From sequence record OR192075.1: a stretch of DNA of 64,000 nt; one strand, given 5' to 3'. The position numbers were made by a program, and so were the translations under genes. Below the pieces are notes generated by a model that was not told where the DNA came from, did no database searches, and worked only from the letters and a program-made list of their open reading frames with translations. This document shows, piece after piece, positions 25,997 to 58,481 of this stretch (position 1 is the first letter of the stretch; each line of letters starts with the position of its first letter). This stretch comes from Escherichia phage MIZ6.

Positions 25997-26005
25997 TAAG
26001 CGAAA

Positions 26006-26034
26006 GGCGGGGATTATCCCCCGCCTTTTTATTT
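26006..26034 (+). terminator. Rho-independent terminator after gene 54
   Basis: GGCGGGG-ATTAT-CCCCCGCC followed by TTTTTATTTT. Confidence 0.75.
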
Positions 26035-26514
26035 TGCTAAATCATTGCAATATTTTAGTGCCTTAGTTTGAAATTCTGCGCTGTTAAGTTCTTCATAACG
26101 GTCATAATCACCGTTTAATGCTGTCTTTCTTGCTTCTTGCTCTATCTGCATGTCAGACATGATAATACAGCGATCCCGTGCTTTCATCTTCTCAAGTTGT
26201 ATAGACTCTTCTTTCTGCTTGCGCAATTCTTCTTGACGCTTCTTTTCTTCTTGTGCTTTCTCTTCCCGCGCTTCTTTGATTGCATCCTTGAACATCTGCG
26301 TTTGTGGTGCTAAACCAACTTTAACGCGATCCACGTCTCGACGTTCCATTTTAGAAATAAAGCATGATTCGATCTGATCATCACTTGCATATGCTGCTTT
26401 ACATTCACGAAGCAAGAAAACCGGATCTGATTTAGCATTCATCATAGCTTCCATGTTGGCACAACCAGTAAGCATGAATGCAGCCGCAAGACCAATCAGT
26501 TTAATCATTTTCAT
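26029..26514 (-). CDS. Predicted lipoprotein with coiled-coil region
   Basis: 161 aa; signal peptide with lipobox LTGC; charged Glu/Lys/Arg-rich helix. Confidence 0.6.
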   Translation of the reverse strand: MKMIKLIGLAAAFMLTGCANMEAMMNAKSDPVFLLRECKAAYASDDQIESCFISKMERRDVDRVKVGLAPQTQMFKDAIKEAREEKAQEEKKRQEELRKQKEESIQLEKMKARDRCIIMSDMQIEQEARKTALNGDYDRYEELNSAEFQTKALKYCNDLAK

Positions 26515-27335
26515 TTAGTCACCTCACCGAAAATTGTAAATTGTCTACGATTCTCATCGCCGAAAGATTCTACTACGTCGTTTACCTTGACGCAAGTCCC
26601 GCGCGGTAAAATTACTTCACATTCGCAAGGGTTCCATGCAATTGACCCAACAACAAAACCTTTATGGTCTTTTACGTCAATTACCCATGATACATTACAA
26701 GAATGTTGCATCTTTCCGGTCATGGATTCATATCGATTCTCACAATAAAGGCTAGTGCTATTTGAAAGCCAGCCTCCAAAGATGATCGGTGTCATGCTGG
26801 TCGATACAAAGTTTTTAAAGGTAAACTCCTTATCTTCAATAATACGCTCTATTGTCTGAATGTCAAGATGTTGACCGCGATAAAGAGTACCGTTTAACTT
26901 TTCGGTTTTATCCATGACACAATCCATCAAATCAACAATCTCTGATATCTCATCGGTCATGTCTTCTTCCCCTAAGAGAGCACCATTTACCCATTCGTAT
27001 TGTTCAGACACATAATCACAGATTGCATTATATTCTGCTGGGGTTATGTTGTTATGTTTGTAATGTTTGAATACATTATCTCCAAAGTCTTCGGAGTGTA
27101 CTTCATACATCACATTAATGATTTTCTTGACAAATCCATAATCTTGTGTCTCACGCTCAAGGAAGCGGATAACCTTCACATAATCATCAAAGTTAATCTG
27201 ATCGCTGATCATCTCAGTGATCATGTAACCATTAATCCCCTCAATGTCATATGTTTCGATGTAATTATCCATACGTTCCATCATTGATTCGCGTGATTCT
27301 TCTGAAAGACGAAAATCCTGTAATTTCTTGAACAT
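26511..27335 (-). CDS. ADP-ribosyltransferase (Alt/Mod-family paralog)
   Basis: 274 aa; R-S-E triad context LYRG ... FVSTS ... CECEVILPRG parallels Alt. Confidence 0.7.
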   Translation of the reverse strand: MFKKLQDFRLSEESRESMMERMDNYIETYDIEGINGYMITEMISDQINFDDYVKVIRFLERETQDYGFVKKIINVMYEVHSEDFGDNVFKHYKHNNITPAEYNAICDYVSEQYEWVNGALLGEEDMTDEISEIVDLMDCVMDKTEKLNGTLYRGQHLDIQTIERIIEDKEFTFKNFVSTSMTPIIFGGWLSNSTSLYCENRYESMTGKMQHSCNVSWVIDVKDHKGFVVGSIAWNPCECEVILPRGTCVKVNDVVESFGDENRRQFTIFGEVTK

Positions 27336-27354
27336 TTTAAACCTCCCATATAAC

Positions 27355-27386
27355 AGAAAACGGGGCTAGTATAAAACTAGTCCCCG
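27355..27386 (-). terminator. Terminator-like hairpin after alt
   Basis: CGGGGCTAGT ... ACTAGTCCCCG imperfect stem preceded by plus-strand A-run. Confidence 0.45.
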
Positions 27387-27413
27387 TTTGAGTCAACCAT
27401 TATTTCTTAAAAA

Positions 27414-29465
27414 TTACATTTTAAATTTATCTGGCATTGCGTCTACAGATACCAGATCAGCGATAAGCTGACGTAGAGTTGCCTTATCTGCTTTCTTACG
27501 TTCGGTTTTAGCTTCGCTAATGAAGCTGGAGAAAGACAGGTCAGAAGCAGGTTTAACAACACCTTCACGGATGAATGCATCACCGTCCGCGATCATCTCA
27601 CCAGATTCTTGTAATGCTGCCAGTTCACTTTTGTTCATAATATGTGCCTCAATGTAATAAGTTTCTTGTGAATCCGTCGATGCCGTAGCACGAGTTACCG
27701 TATCAAAGGATAACACAACACCGCGAGGAAGTAAAATCTCGCATTCTTTGTAAGCAAATGCTTTGTTACCTACTGGCAATACAGGGATGTTTTCCGCGCC
27801 AGCAATGGAGAAAGCAACATTAGCGCCACCTTCACCGCGAGAGCCAGCCATAGAATCAACACCAGCAATGGCACTAGCCACGTTTGCATTCCAGCCACCA
27901 AAAATGTTAGGTGCAAGGGAAGTGCTCACATAGTTTTTAAAGTAAAACGCTTTTTGCTTACGTGCAGTTTCCCACATTTGAGACCGGAAGTCCATACCAC
28001 GATACAGAATAGTACCCGGATCAAGTTTAACGCCATAGTTAGAGAAGGCATTATCCAGTGCATCGCACATCTTGACCAATTCTTCTGGATCTGCGATTCC
28101 CTCAAACTCTTCCAGCTTACGATCAGTTAGGAAGTTGTTCATATTGATGTATGCTGCATCGGCATATTCGCTCAACACAAAACCTTCCGCGCCCGGCAGA
28201 TCAAGATCAATATCTGCCATCATTTCACCCATGTTGCTAGCAATTGCTTCAAACATACCGGACGCAACATTACGAAGGGCATCGGTTTTAATCTGGGTGA
28301 TATGACTACGCAGCATTTCAGCTTTTACATCTGCTGGCATAGACTGGTCTACTCGATCCATTGCCAGGGCGGTGATCTTGTTTTCGAATACTTCCTCGCT
28401 CATGATTTCTTTTAAGCGTTTGATTGAGGCTGCGATAACTTCCGCAGACAACGGATCATATTGATCCTGAACTTTTACCAGTTCGCTTACTGCGTATTTT
28501 GCATCGGCTTCGCTTTCAAAAATAGTACGCATGAAACCATAGCGAGTGATAATATCACTTGTCCAGTCATTCAGAGAACGAGCGGTTGAACGTTCTAAGG
28601 CTTGACGATCAATCAGAGTATTAAACTGTTTCTTAGGTTCGGCTTCGGTGATATCTTCTTCCGGTTTAAGATTAATTTTTTCTGGATGATTCACATAGTC
28701 GCTGTTATAGGTCGCTTGAGTTTTCAGCATTTCTTCTTTAGTCAAACGAGATTTAGCCGCTACGCGTTGTTCTGCTTCCGCGTTTCGTTCTTCTTCTGAC
28801 ACAAGACTAGCCGCATACGCCTCATCTTTAGTCAGAGATTCACCAGTAGCCTTAGATACCCAGCGATCACCTAAATCACTTTCTACTTTAGTGAACAAGG
28901 ATTCATCAAGTTTAATCCCTTTAATCTTATCAATCGCCATCCCGCGACGCTTGACAACAACTAAAGCGATCTTTTTGCTGGTCATTACTTCCTGCTGGAA
29001 TACTTCAAACTTCGGTGTACGACGCACCAGACGCTCTATAACGCGCTTAACCAGTTCGGTCTTACCTTTCATGCGGGATACGTTAAAACGGAACATAACA
29101 GCGTCTAATTGCGCTTTACGGGCTGTTTCCATAACCACATCAAAAGCACTTGCCATAACTGCAATCGGGTTATCGCCTAGACCATTTTTAAGCTGTACAA
29201 TACGACCGCTTTTGTTCATTTCGCACAGTACAACATGTGCGGTCTTGTCACCCATACGAATGATTTTAGGTGTTTTGTTGGTGAAGTTACAAAGACGGAC
29301 AATCACATCTTTATCGCGTGTCTGTACTGCAAAAAGCTGTTTAGGATTCTGCTTAGGCTTTAAGCACTGTACCGGAGCAATACTGCCAAAGTTTTCTTCC
29401 TCTTCCGTCAACAGCCATTTCTCGAAAGATTCAATCATTAGATCGTCGATTTCTAAGTTAAACAT
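27414..29465 (-). CDS. alt: ADP-ribosyltransferase Alt
   Basis: 683 aa; LYRGMDF ... YVSTS ... YKECEILLPRG; size and position (after gene 54) as T4 Alt. Confidence 0.8.
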   Translation of the reverse strand: MFNLEIDDLMIESFEKWLLTEEEENFGSIAPVQCLKPKQNPKQLFAVQTRDKDVIVRLCNFTNKTPKIIRMGDKTAHVVLCEMNKSGRIVQLKNGLGDNPIAVMASAFDVVMETARKAQLDAVMFRFNVSRMKGKTELVKRVIERLVRRTPKFEVFQQEVMTSKKIALVVVKRRGMAIDKIKGIKLDESLFTKVESDLGDRWVSKATGESLTKDEAYAASLVSEEERNAEAEQRVAAKSRLTKEEMLKTQATYNSDYVNHPEKINLKPEEDITEAEPKKQFNTLIDRQALERSTARSLNDWTSDIITRYGFMRTIFESEADAKYAVSELVKVQDQYDPLSAEVIAASIKRLKEIMSEEVFENKITALAMDRVDQSMPADVKAEMLRSHITQIKTDALRNVASGMFEAIASNMGEMMADIDLDLPGAEGFVLSEYADAAYINMNNFLTDRKLEEFEGIADPEELVKMCDALDNAFSNYGVKLDPGTILYRGMDFRSQMWETARKQKAFYFKNYVSTSLAPNIFGGWNANVASAIAGVDSMAGSRGEGGANVAFSIAGAENIPVLPVGNKAFAYKECEILLPRGVVLSFDTVTRATASTDSQETYYIEAHIMNKSELAALQESGEMIADGDAFIREGVVKPASDLSFSSFISEAKTERKKADKATLRQLIADLVSVDAMPDKFKM

Positions 29466-29505
29466 TTTATATCCTCTAGTTGATAACCTATAAACCTATA
29501 TTTAT

Positions 29506-29534
29506 GAAAAAGGGGCTTAACGCCCCCTTTTATT
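29506..29534. terminator. Bidirectional terminator hairpin
   Basis: AAAAA-GGGGC-TTAAC-GCCCC-CTTTTATT. Confidence 0.6.
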
Positions 29535-30065: not shown

Positions 30066-30584
30066 TTAGTTATTTTTTAATTGCTCATCTTGTAATAGGG
30101 CAATAACATGCTGTCGATGTTCTTCCGATTGAGGCACACCGAAAAAGTTTGTTTTGTAGAAATACTCTAATCGGTCTTCTCGTGTGCTCTCTTCCATCAT
30201 GATCGCGGGTAGTCCGAGATTTCGGAAACGTCGCTTTTCTGCTGGCGTAAAATCACTGTAATACAACATAGAATCATCATTACCAGCAATGCTAAACTCA
30301 TCATTCATAAAGGAGAATATTGCGTTTAAACGCTGTTTACCGTCCACGATTTCGATCTCATAGCGAGAGCCATCATCAATCTTAGCCATTGCGATAGCAC
30401 CAACCGGAAAATCATTAATCAGGTTTTCGATAAACATACGTTTGTTTTCGGTGTCCCATACCAAAGGACGCTGATAATCTGGGTTCATGTTGATATAGCC
30501 ATCTTCTAACCACGCCTCATAAACAGAGATGACAAAGTTTTTAGTATTGGTATAGTAACGGCGTTTAGGCGTTAAACGGTTCAT
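30066..30584 (-). CDS. DUF262 (ParB/Srx-like, GmrS N-domain-like) protein
   Basis: 172 aa from ATG 30584 (SD AGGAG upstream); motifs DYQRP and VDGKQR typical of DUF262. Confidence 0.55.
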   Translation of the reverse strand: MNRLTPKRRYYTNTKNFVISVYEAWLEDGYINMNPDYQRPLVWDTENKRMFIENLINDFPVGAIAMAKIDDGSRYEIEIVDGKQRLNAIFSFMNDEFSIAGNDDSMLYYSDFTPAEKRRFRNLGLPAIMMEESTREDRLEYFYKTNFFGVPQSEEHRQHVIALLQDEQLKNN

Positions 30585-58295: not shown

Positions 58296-58481
58296 TTAAG
58301 TTCTCTCCACTCTCACAACAACATATTCACCAAACGAGTTAGATACTTCACGGTCATACCCGTACTTTTCCATAACTCGCAGAATTGCATTGTTTAATTC
58401 GGCACGGAAATAATTATAATCCTTATCAGGGATTCTGTCAACTACCCATTTTGCACCTTCTGACAAATCAACTTTAACCAT
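58296..58481 (-). CDS. Hypothetical small protein (61 aa)
   Basis: ORF abutting rnh. Confidence 0.4.
   Translation of the reverse strand: MVKVDLSEGAKWVVDRIPDKDYNYFRAELNNAILRVMEKYGYDREVSNSFGEYVVVRVERT

Follow-up and report, generated by a model that had tools for sequence, protein, structure and literature searches.

Why should a phage keep two genes for the same kind of enzyme side by side? This question is raised by a 64,000-nt stretch of DNA from Escherichia phage MIZ6 (sequence record OR192075.1; the whole stretch is referred to as "the window"), in which a gene for a full-length homologue of the ADP-ribosyltransferase (ART) Alt of phage T4 (683 amino acids) is followed by a gene for a second Alt-type ART of only 274 amino acids (the "short ART") and by a lipoprotein gene. 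The three ARTs of T4 are a textbook case of host reprogramming by protein modification, and there has been renewed interest in them since ModB was recognised to attach RNA chains to host proteins. Our answer to the question, to which we assign a probability of roughly 0.6, is that the two genes encode functional ARTs which are used at different times: Alt would be a late protein that is packaged and injected, whereas the short ART would be made early, in the infected cell.

The source phage is an RB49-like, T4-type coliphage (Krischvirus). Over the 3.8 kb around the locus, the sequence does not differ from that of Escherichia phage MIZ2 (OR167178.1) at the same coordinates (100% identity); its identity to phi1, GEC-3S, RB49 and the remaining Krischvirus genomes listed is 98.6–99.3%. 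Both the existence of the short gene and its family assignment are already known from Nolan et al. (2006), from PHROGs and from the RefSeq label "ADP-ribosyltransferase". In the list of Nolan et al., RB49ORF183c, 44RRORF188c and T4 alt.-1/alt.-2 are paralogues that arose by duplication of the neighbouring alt, and 44RRORF187c is entered as a duplicate of full length (PMC1524935). As a sequence finding, the gene pair is, thus, a recorded variation on a well-known theme and holds nothing beyond the databases and the 2006 paper. A preliminary description of the window reported the tandem, but missed that the paralogy is in the literature and that the two genes appear to form separate late and early transcription units. 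Added here is that the short ART comprises the catalytic half only, that it is old and strongly constrained by purifying selection, and that it belongs, together with the lipoprotein gene, to a conserved early cassette headed by a promoter-early stem-loop (PeSL). In those respects, it is unlike the co-transcribed full-length duplicates of T-even phages.

Alt and a stand-alone catalytic half

The three open reading frames (ORFs), all on the minus strand, are exactly where the preliminary description had placed them (Table 1). The product of the full-length gene matches the PHROGs family phrog_802 (Alt-like) over positions 2–674 of the 674 profile positions (E 3e-180). BLASTP aligns residues 31–681 with residues 15–679 of T4 Alt at 27% identity over ~650 residues (E 7e-61), while residues 425–610 match the Pfam family PF03496 (ADPrib_exo_Tox) with 37.5 bits (E 2e-9; gathering score, 23.4 bits). 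The protein is composed of an N-terminal Alt domain (PF26846, Tevenvirinae_ADPRT), which is indicated by the T4 Alt alignment from residue 15 and by a PF26846 match on a 99%-identical homologue from locus L017, an ART domain at residues ~422–611, and a conserved C-terminal tail of the pattern DGD...ETG...F..F...MPxKF. The catalytic residues are R489, S514-T-S516 and E574-x-E576. On these alignments, the 683-residue gene is identified as the orthologue of T4 alt. Identity bands of 90–95%, which had been obtained for Alt in most Krischvirus records, proved to be an artefact of joining the Alt match with a cross-match to the short ART; direct comparison gives 99.6%.

The short ART matches PF03496 with 59.3 bits (E 4.3e-16) at the same cutoff of 23.4 and falls into a PHROGs family of its own (phrog_15144, ADP-ribosyltransferase; E 3e-198); its second PHROGs match covers only positions 330–602 of the Alt profile. 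With its neighbour Alt, it shares 37% identity over 109 residues of the catalytic core (E 1e-16), much more than chance would give. An N-terminal helical region (residues 1–145) precedes the ART core (~146–274), and the protein corresponds to the C-terminal half of Alt without the N-terminal ~330 and the last ~70 residues. The PF26846 domain is absent, with PF03496 standing alone in the precomputed Pfam tables, and also the Alt C-terminal tail is missing from the short family, whose sequences stop at ...FTIFxEV directly after the ART core.

The Arg/Ser-Thr-Ser/Glu-x-Glu context ascribed to the short protein in the preliminary description is borne out by an alignment with T4 Alt, the two Alts of T2, ModA and ModB. 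R153 (within LYRG), S178-T179-S180 and E238-C-E240 align with the window's Alt, with T4 Alt and with both T2 Alts, and the ExE motif is in register with those of T4 ModA and ModB. Across 85 Alt-type sequences, R153, S178, E238 and E240 do not vary, and T179 and S180 hardly do; hence, the loss of the R, STS and ExE residues, which that description had considered, has not taken place. In this ART clade, ExE rather than QxE is the arginine-type motif. E240 of the short ART aligns with E165 of T4 ModA and with the second Glu of the T4 Alt ExE, and alanine at either of these positions abolishes ADP-ribosylation (PMC11404850; the Glu of T4 Alt is numbered 577 there (E577A) and is E576 in the NC_000866 translation, while ModA E165 agrees exactly).

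The AlphaFold2 model of the short ART has a predicted local distance difference test (pLDDT) score of 90.8 and a predicted template modelling (pTM) score of 0.87, with the N-terminus as its least confident part. A Foldseek search of the PDB returned Vis, C3bot, C3bot2, Certhrax, CDTa and iota Ia (E 4e-11 to ~1e-8, probability 1.00), so that the best solved structural matches are arginine- or asparagine-specific ARTs of the C3/Vis/iota type. In BFVD, the viral structures nearest to the model are C-terminal Alt halves; for Alt of Shigella phage SP18, the query template modelling (TM) score is 0.80. With these bacterial proteins and VIP2, the short ART has the predicted fold, the catalytic motifs and profile matches in common, but only 14–20% identity. 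The bacterial C3-like and binary-toxin ARTs are secreted, have eukaryotic targets and are not phage takeover enzymes. The short ART can be described as an R-S-E ART with a predicted C3/VIP2-type fold that includes the N-terminal helices. From the catalytic residues and profile matches, we infer that both ART genes of the locus encode functional, arginine-type (R-S-E) mono-ADP-ribosyltransferases of the Alt/VIP2 family.

All 58 Krischvirus records have an intact short gene, with 97–100% protein identity. Compared with an 83%-identical homologue, the ratio of non-synonymous to synonymous substitutions (dN/dS) is 0.093 at a dS of 1.2. In public metagenomes, the short ART is represented by seven 90%-identity clusters of 271–288 residues that extend down to ~41–46% identity with the protein of the window. 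The family has 59 invariant positions, including the whole catalytic set, and is marked by the motifs GGW, N-x-T-S...C-E and W-N-x-x-E-x-E, the last of these in the ADP-ribosylating turn-turn (ARTT) loop. These data bear on a reading which the preliminary description had kept in mind, namely, that the short ORF is an inactive, degenerating partial copy of alt. Precedents are the remnants alt.-1 and alt.-2 of T4, with which RB49ORF183c was grouped by Nolan et al. (PMC1524935). Intactness in all 58 records, the low dN/dS, the 59 invariant residues including the catalytic triad, and the complete and confident model effectively exclude a pseudogene, and we regard the decay reading as highly improbable. 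Furthermore, a conserved promoter and Shine-Dalgarno sequence of its own precede the short gene, which keeps the catalytic half, whereas the T4 remnants keep the N-terminal half.

Late- and early-type transcription signals

What precedes alt is a late-promoter-like core and, just before it, a G+C-rich hairpin with a T-run (Table 1). A motif search of the minus strand between positions 26000 and 30000 found ATAAATA solely upstream of alt, and no such late-promoter core upstream of the short ART. The order of terminator and (A/C/T)ATAAATA before alt recurs in the divergent Krischvirus-like loci L007, L017 and L019 and in T2 and T4, with the position of the G+C-rich hairpin kept in L007, L017 and L019. 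The first T of the late promoter is poorly conserved in most T4-like phages studied, as has been described earlier for RB49 as well (Nolan et al. 2006, PMC1524935).

The short gene lies, as had been stated in the preliminary description, next to alt; however, "immediately downstream" does not do justice to a spacer of 78 nt with a terminator-like hairpin and a promoter. The spacer reads AAATAATGG-TTGACT-17 nt-TATACT, followed by the hairpin, TTTTCT, GGGAGG and the ATG. Its −35 box TTGACT is located at 27396–27391 (GTTGAC including the preceding G) and its −10 box TATACT at 27373–27368; the 12-bp, bulged hairpin extends over 27388–27359 (ACGGGG...CAGT / ACTG...CCCCGT) and runs into TTTTCT. In a sigma-70 scan, 10 of 12 box positions agree at a spacing of 17 nt, the annotators of GEC-3S independently marked a promoter at this site, and the RNA fold has a free energy of −20.9 kcal/mol (z = −2.84 versus shuffles). 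Among seven loci with proteins down to ~41–47% identity, TTGAC, the 17-nt gap and TATACT are invariant, and pairing in the hairpin amounts to 98.6%, with covariation at two of the 12 pairs (C-G, A-U and U-A in one; C-G and U-A in the other).

This arrangement has been described for RB49 and phi1, which contain ~50 PeSLs per genome, with strong sigma-70 promoters and with stem-loops that are effective terminators according to reporter assays on representatives (Arbiol et al. 2010, PMC2839356). The AT-rich lead, the sigma-70 boxes, the GGGG...CCCC stem-loop over the −10 box, the Shine-Dalgarno sequence and the ATG of those elements are all found here (PMC2839356), and the spacer element is, as far as sequence can tell, a member of the PeSL class. 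Likewise, the RB49 early −35 consensus prefers G at −33 (PMC1524935), and the GTTGAC of the short ART agrees with it. The PeSLs of that study mostly precede ORFans in hyperplastic regions (PMC2839356), whereas the one described here fronts a recognisable enzyme gene at the edge of a virion module and is conserved down to ~41–47% protein identity. A simple pattern search of both strands of the window for TTGAC(A/T), 16–18 nt, TAnAnT and a nearby GGG...CCC inverted repeat returned seven PeSL-like motifs, all on the minus strand; those other than the PeSL of the short ART start at 58441, 38272, 37878, 36752, 32191 and 30058.

Since the −10 box lies in the hairpin loop and 3' arm, transcripts started at the PeSL promoter cannot form the hairpin, while those arriving from alt can. 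Alt and the short ART would, on the evidence of these signals, belong to separate transcription units, one late and one early. By homology with T4, alt would be transcribed from its late promoter and Alt would be packaged in the head via its non-catalytic parts, injected with the DNA and, as in T4, modify host proteins at time zero. The PeSL hairpin would terminate late transcripts arriving from alt, whereas transcripts from the PeSL promoter, being without the 5' arm of the hairpin, would continue into the short ART and the lipoprotein gene that overlaps it. These two genes would, hence, make up a separate early operon that is insulated from late transcription. The short ART would be made in the first minutes of infection by the unmodified host RNA polymerase, would not be packaged, and, like ModA and ModB, would use nicotinamide adenine dinucleotide (NAD+) to ADP-ribosylate arginines of host or phage proteins in the cytoplasm. 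Its set of targets probably differs from that of Alt; a distinct target is plausible given that the N-terminal domain and C-terminal tail of Alt are lacking, that the W-N-x-x-E-x-E ARTT loop is its own, and that the time of expression is apparently different.

Alternatively, the short ART might be a second virion-packaged internal protein, produced late as transcription runs on from alt, directed to the prohead core, cleaved by the prohead protease after E12 and co-injected with Alt. It is directly downstream of alt, in a block beside baseplate and tail-tube genes, and such a baseplate/tail-gene context has been taken as a sign of head packaging by Iyer et al. (PMC9503650, PMC5512222); moreover, the second Alt of T2 is co-transcribed with alt. 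However, the conserved, covarying hairpin with its T-run divides the short ART from alt, the short gene is preceded by an invariant early promoter instead of a late-promoter core, and its product has neither of the non-catalytic parts of Alt.

The N-terminus of the short ART speaks on both sides of this alternative. Residues 1–12 of the short ART, MFKKLQDFRLSE (27300–27335, minus strand), and of Alt, MFNLEIDDLMIE (29430–29465, minus strand), are loosely parallel in an MF start, a hydrophobic residue 10 and Glu-12; this shared motif may be a remnant of the Alt N-terminus or just chance. The prohead protease gp21 of T4 follows the cleavage rule L/I-x-E, which L-S-E at residues 10–12 of the short ART fits. 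Furthermore, the N-terminus resembles the T4 capsid-targeting sequence MKTYQEFIAE. The short-ART N-terminus was rejected as a capsid-targeting sequence, given that a loose motif scan over all ORFs of the 163.7-kb genome produced four unrelated matches and no coherent family, and that this N-terminus, also the least confident part of the model, is not conserved in divergent family members. The capsid-targeting sequence of IPII and IPIII is itself not conserved in other core proteins (PMC9958956). Taken together, we consider packaging of the short ART unlikely.

Several points weigh against an early and non-packaged short ART. Its L-x-E, as in a T4 prohead-protease site, could hint at packaging or processing, and an early-made protein could persist and still be packaged. 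The literature examined names no part of Alt that directs packaging; the loss of domains by the short ART would fit non-packaging. The terminator scan did not call the PeSL hairpin, which has a one-base bulge, and the PeSLs that were assayed, PeSL206/205 and PeSL211/210, are others than that of the short ART (PMC2839356). In the literature, we found no Krischvirus transcriptome or virion proteome and no experiments on the short ART. Finally, the early ART role is not vacant, because a Mod-like ART adjoins srd.

This Mod-like ART is an intact protein of 167 amino acids, encoded outside the window (MIZ2 record 87620–88123; L005:23620–24123, minus strand). It matches ModB (E 1e-9) better than ModA (E 3e-5), has R44, S70 and E132-x-E134 intact, and gave no Pfam match in the Pfam copy used. 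T4 carries both modA and modB at the srd-adjacent site. The phage has three ARTs, as T4 does, in a different mix. T4 ModA and ModB are expressed early and are not packaged. The short ART is like them a small stand-alone R-S-E ART with an aligned ExE, and its expression would likewise be early; however, BLASTP detects no significant similarity to ModA or ModB (best E 7.6, to ModA). As a tentative extension, an Alt-derived catalytic core might have been turned into an early intracellular enzyme, giving a three-enzyme programme (injected Alt, early short ART, one Mod) that is wired unlike that of T4, with the short ART either replacing the missing second Mod or hitting a new target such as a defence or stress protein.

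The gene pair offers a natural comparison between one catalytic module with putative packaging domains and a late promoter and the same module bare behind an early-type promoter. If the proposed timing is true, it could separate Alt-type effects on injection from those of an enzyme made in the cell, and could help to define the parts of Alt that direct packaging. RB49-type phages should be easier to engineer than T4, because their cytosine DNA is unmodified; the DNA modifications of T4 hinder Cas cleavage (PMC11404850).

Origin of the short gene and comparison with other phages

A neighbour-joining tree was built from 47 ART domains (195 columns, 200 bootstraps, midpoint root). Its deeper order is not settled, but the short proteins form a monophyletic clade with 100% bootstrap support on a long branch. 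This clade stands apart from the second Alt of T2 and from a pair of full-length Alts of the Krischvirus type, which has equally high support. An exhaustive HMMER search of 1.84 billion representatives returned three 50%-identity clusters above 390 bits, with the next at 127 bits or less. On account of the separate long-branch clade and this gap in scores, the short ART is seen as an old, narrow, lineage-specific paralogue and not a recent copy; its family is small and limited to Krischvirus-like phages. A recent in-place duplication of the Krischvirus alt was also considered and is ruled out by the position of the short clade, which is not nested with the Krischvirus Alt pair; it is further disfavoured by BLASTP, in which T4 Alt (E 6e-23) is a better match for the short ART than the adjacent Alt is (E 2e-15).

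With T4, the locus has in common a positional, full-length Alt homologue, the lead-in of terminator and late promoter, and a convergent gene 54 just downstream of the block, and the short ART has the same catalytic half as T4 Alt with R, STS and ExE. It differs from T4 Alt in being without the N-terminal ~330 and last ~70 residues, in its early-type rather than late promoter, and in forming its own long-branch clade.

Tandem alt duplicates between alt and gene 54, as found here, are present as Alt2 (685 amino acids) in T2, as alt.-1/alt.-2 in T4, as ORF187c/188c in 44RR, and in JS98, Ac42 and Bp7; the duplications in the last three, and a split Alt in Acinetobacter phage ZZ1, are described in the literature (PMC4177764). 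T4 alt.-1/alt.-2 are 95–96% identical to the start of the T2 second Alt and are annotated as an old duplication. In T2, two full-length Alts are 3 nt apart with no promoter between them, whereas the short ART has its own promoter and the catalytic half only. Most of the other second Alts are full-length and abut alt without a regulatory spacer, or are N-terminal remnants, as in T4. To T2 Alt2, the short ART is not specifically related.

In the split Alts of phage ZZ1 (CDS210 and CDS211) and of loci L009 and L011, which come from T-even-like phages in metagenomes, the ART half is a separate protein as well. There, however, an ORF for the N-terminal half persists directly upstream, and the C-terminal tail has stayed with the ART half; the short ART has neither. 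In L009 (5183–7248) and L011 (2366–4386), the second Alt is encoded as an N-terminal ORF (273 or 356 amino acids) and an ART ORF (415 or 316 amino acids) with an overlap of a few bases, which may be a true split or a sequencing frameshift.

The lipoprotein gene and the surroundings of the cassette

The features of the locus are collected in Table 1. In all recovered loci, the order is alt, short ART, a lipoprotein-like ORF of 159–174 amino acids at a distance of −8 to +2 nt, and a convergent gene 54, except that the contig of L014 stops short of the lipoprotein position. The lipoprotein-like gene lies 3' of the short ART in L007, L012, L013, L015, L016, L017 and L019. Lipoprotein genes without the ART were looked for and ruled out, as the 170-kb contigs with the lipoprotein carry the block of alt, short ART and lipoprotein, too. 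The terminator hairpin 3' of the lipoprotein gene is marked as a terminator for both strands in the GEC-3S record, and the metagenome loci have a comparable hairpin there.

Table 1. Genes and candidate regulatory elements of the alt/short-ART locus (positions in the window)
Feature	Position	Strand	Basis
Hairpin, G+C-rich, GGGGCGTTAAGCCCC then T-run; ends upstream early ORF, just before alt late promoter	29512..29526	.	terminator-like scan
Late-promoter-like core CATAAATA upstream of alt (T4 consensus TATAAATA)	29499..29506	-	motif search
alt, full-length Alt-type ART, 683 amino acids	27414..29465	-	ORF, phrog_802, PF03496, BLASTP to T4 Alt
PeSL between alt and short ART	27355..27396	-	sequence, sigma-70 scan, RNA fold, alignment
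Short stand-alone Alt-type ART, 274 amino acids, RB49ORF183c homologue	26511..27335	-	ORF, PF03496, phrog_15144, AlphaFold2/Foldseek
Lipoprotein gene, 161 amino acids	26029..26514	-	ORF, signal peptide and lipobox, phrog_16112
Bidirectional terminator hairpin between lipoprotein gene and convergent gene 54 (tail-tube initiator)	26002..26029	.	11-bp stem, 7 G-C pairs, T-run

Translational coupling of the short ART to the lipoprotein gene, as proposed in the preliminary description, finds support in the TGA stop of the former and the ATG of the latter, which overlap as ATGA, with GAGG seven bases upstream. The encoded protein has a signal peptide, a lipobox L-T-G-C18 and four further Cys residues that are invariant across alleles. 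It belongs to phrog_16112, a family of unknown function, and its AlphaFold2 model is all-helical (pLDDT 87.6), with no fold match in the PDB. An assignment as a Cor-like exclusion protein was rejected: the match to phrog_1119 (E 0.007) spans residues 1–45 only, including the signal peptide, and the all-helical model has no PDB counterpart.

Among otherwise near-identical Krischvirus genomes, the lipoprotein gene is allelically swapped (window 26029–26514 versus L019:3822–4331 and L015:2712–3224). Phage Whisky shares 99.6% identity with the window in Alt as well as in the short ART, but only 33% in the lipoprotein. Only its mature part is replaced there, with the break directly after the invariant signal peptide and lipobox (MKMIKLIGLAAAFMLTGCA), and nucleotide identity falls from at least 0.96 to 0.41–0.59 near window position 26452. 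This pattern suggests that the lipoprotein is a fast-evolving, envelope-facing protein. The metagenome contig SRR24907467_737586 (L015, 3.6 kb), compared with window positions 26029–29465, shows 98% protein identity for alt (dS 0.29), 83% for the short ART (dS 1.2) and 32% for the lipoprotein. Such mosaic divergence implies that recombination has had its breakpoints at or close to the PeSL and where the ART and lipoprotein genes meet, which is consistent with PeSL-mediated shuffling of the cassette.

Against this background, the short ART could be early and active but serve as an anti-defence or toxin-neutralising effector instead of taking over transcription or translation, perhaps in one host-interaction cassette with the co-translated lipoprotein; such a role would bear on the target of the enzyme and not on the mechanism. 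There are phage ARTs that inactivate defence proteins, such as AcrIF11 (PMC12421852), PeSL cassettes have been described as mobile accessory modules (PMC2839356), the mosaicism of L015 and Whisky is a pattern typical of arms-race loci, and a protein with a GmrSD N-terminal domain as well as DNA methyltransferases are encoded nearby. The short ART itself is, however, 97–100% conserved in the 58 cultured Krischvirus genomes, unlike the lipoprotein, and the latter, being exported, cannot share a cytoplasmic substrate with the ART. No target can be inferred from the sequence. We hold this role to be doubtful, and an early intracellular ART with a target set of its own remains the preferred reading.

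The GmrSD-type protein is encoded at 30066–30584 on the minus strand, in an early accessory block upstream of alt. It is 172 amino acids long and consists of the GmrSD N-terminal (DUF262/ParB-like) domain alone (PF03235, E 4e-20), without the C-terminal nuclease domain, and it is found in the 170-kb metagenome relatives L017 and L018, too.

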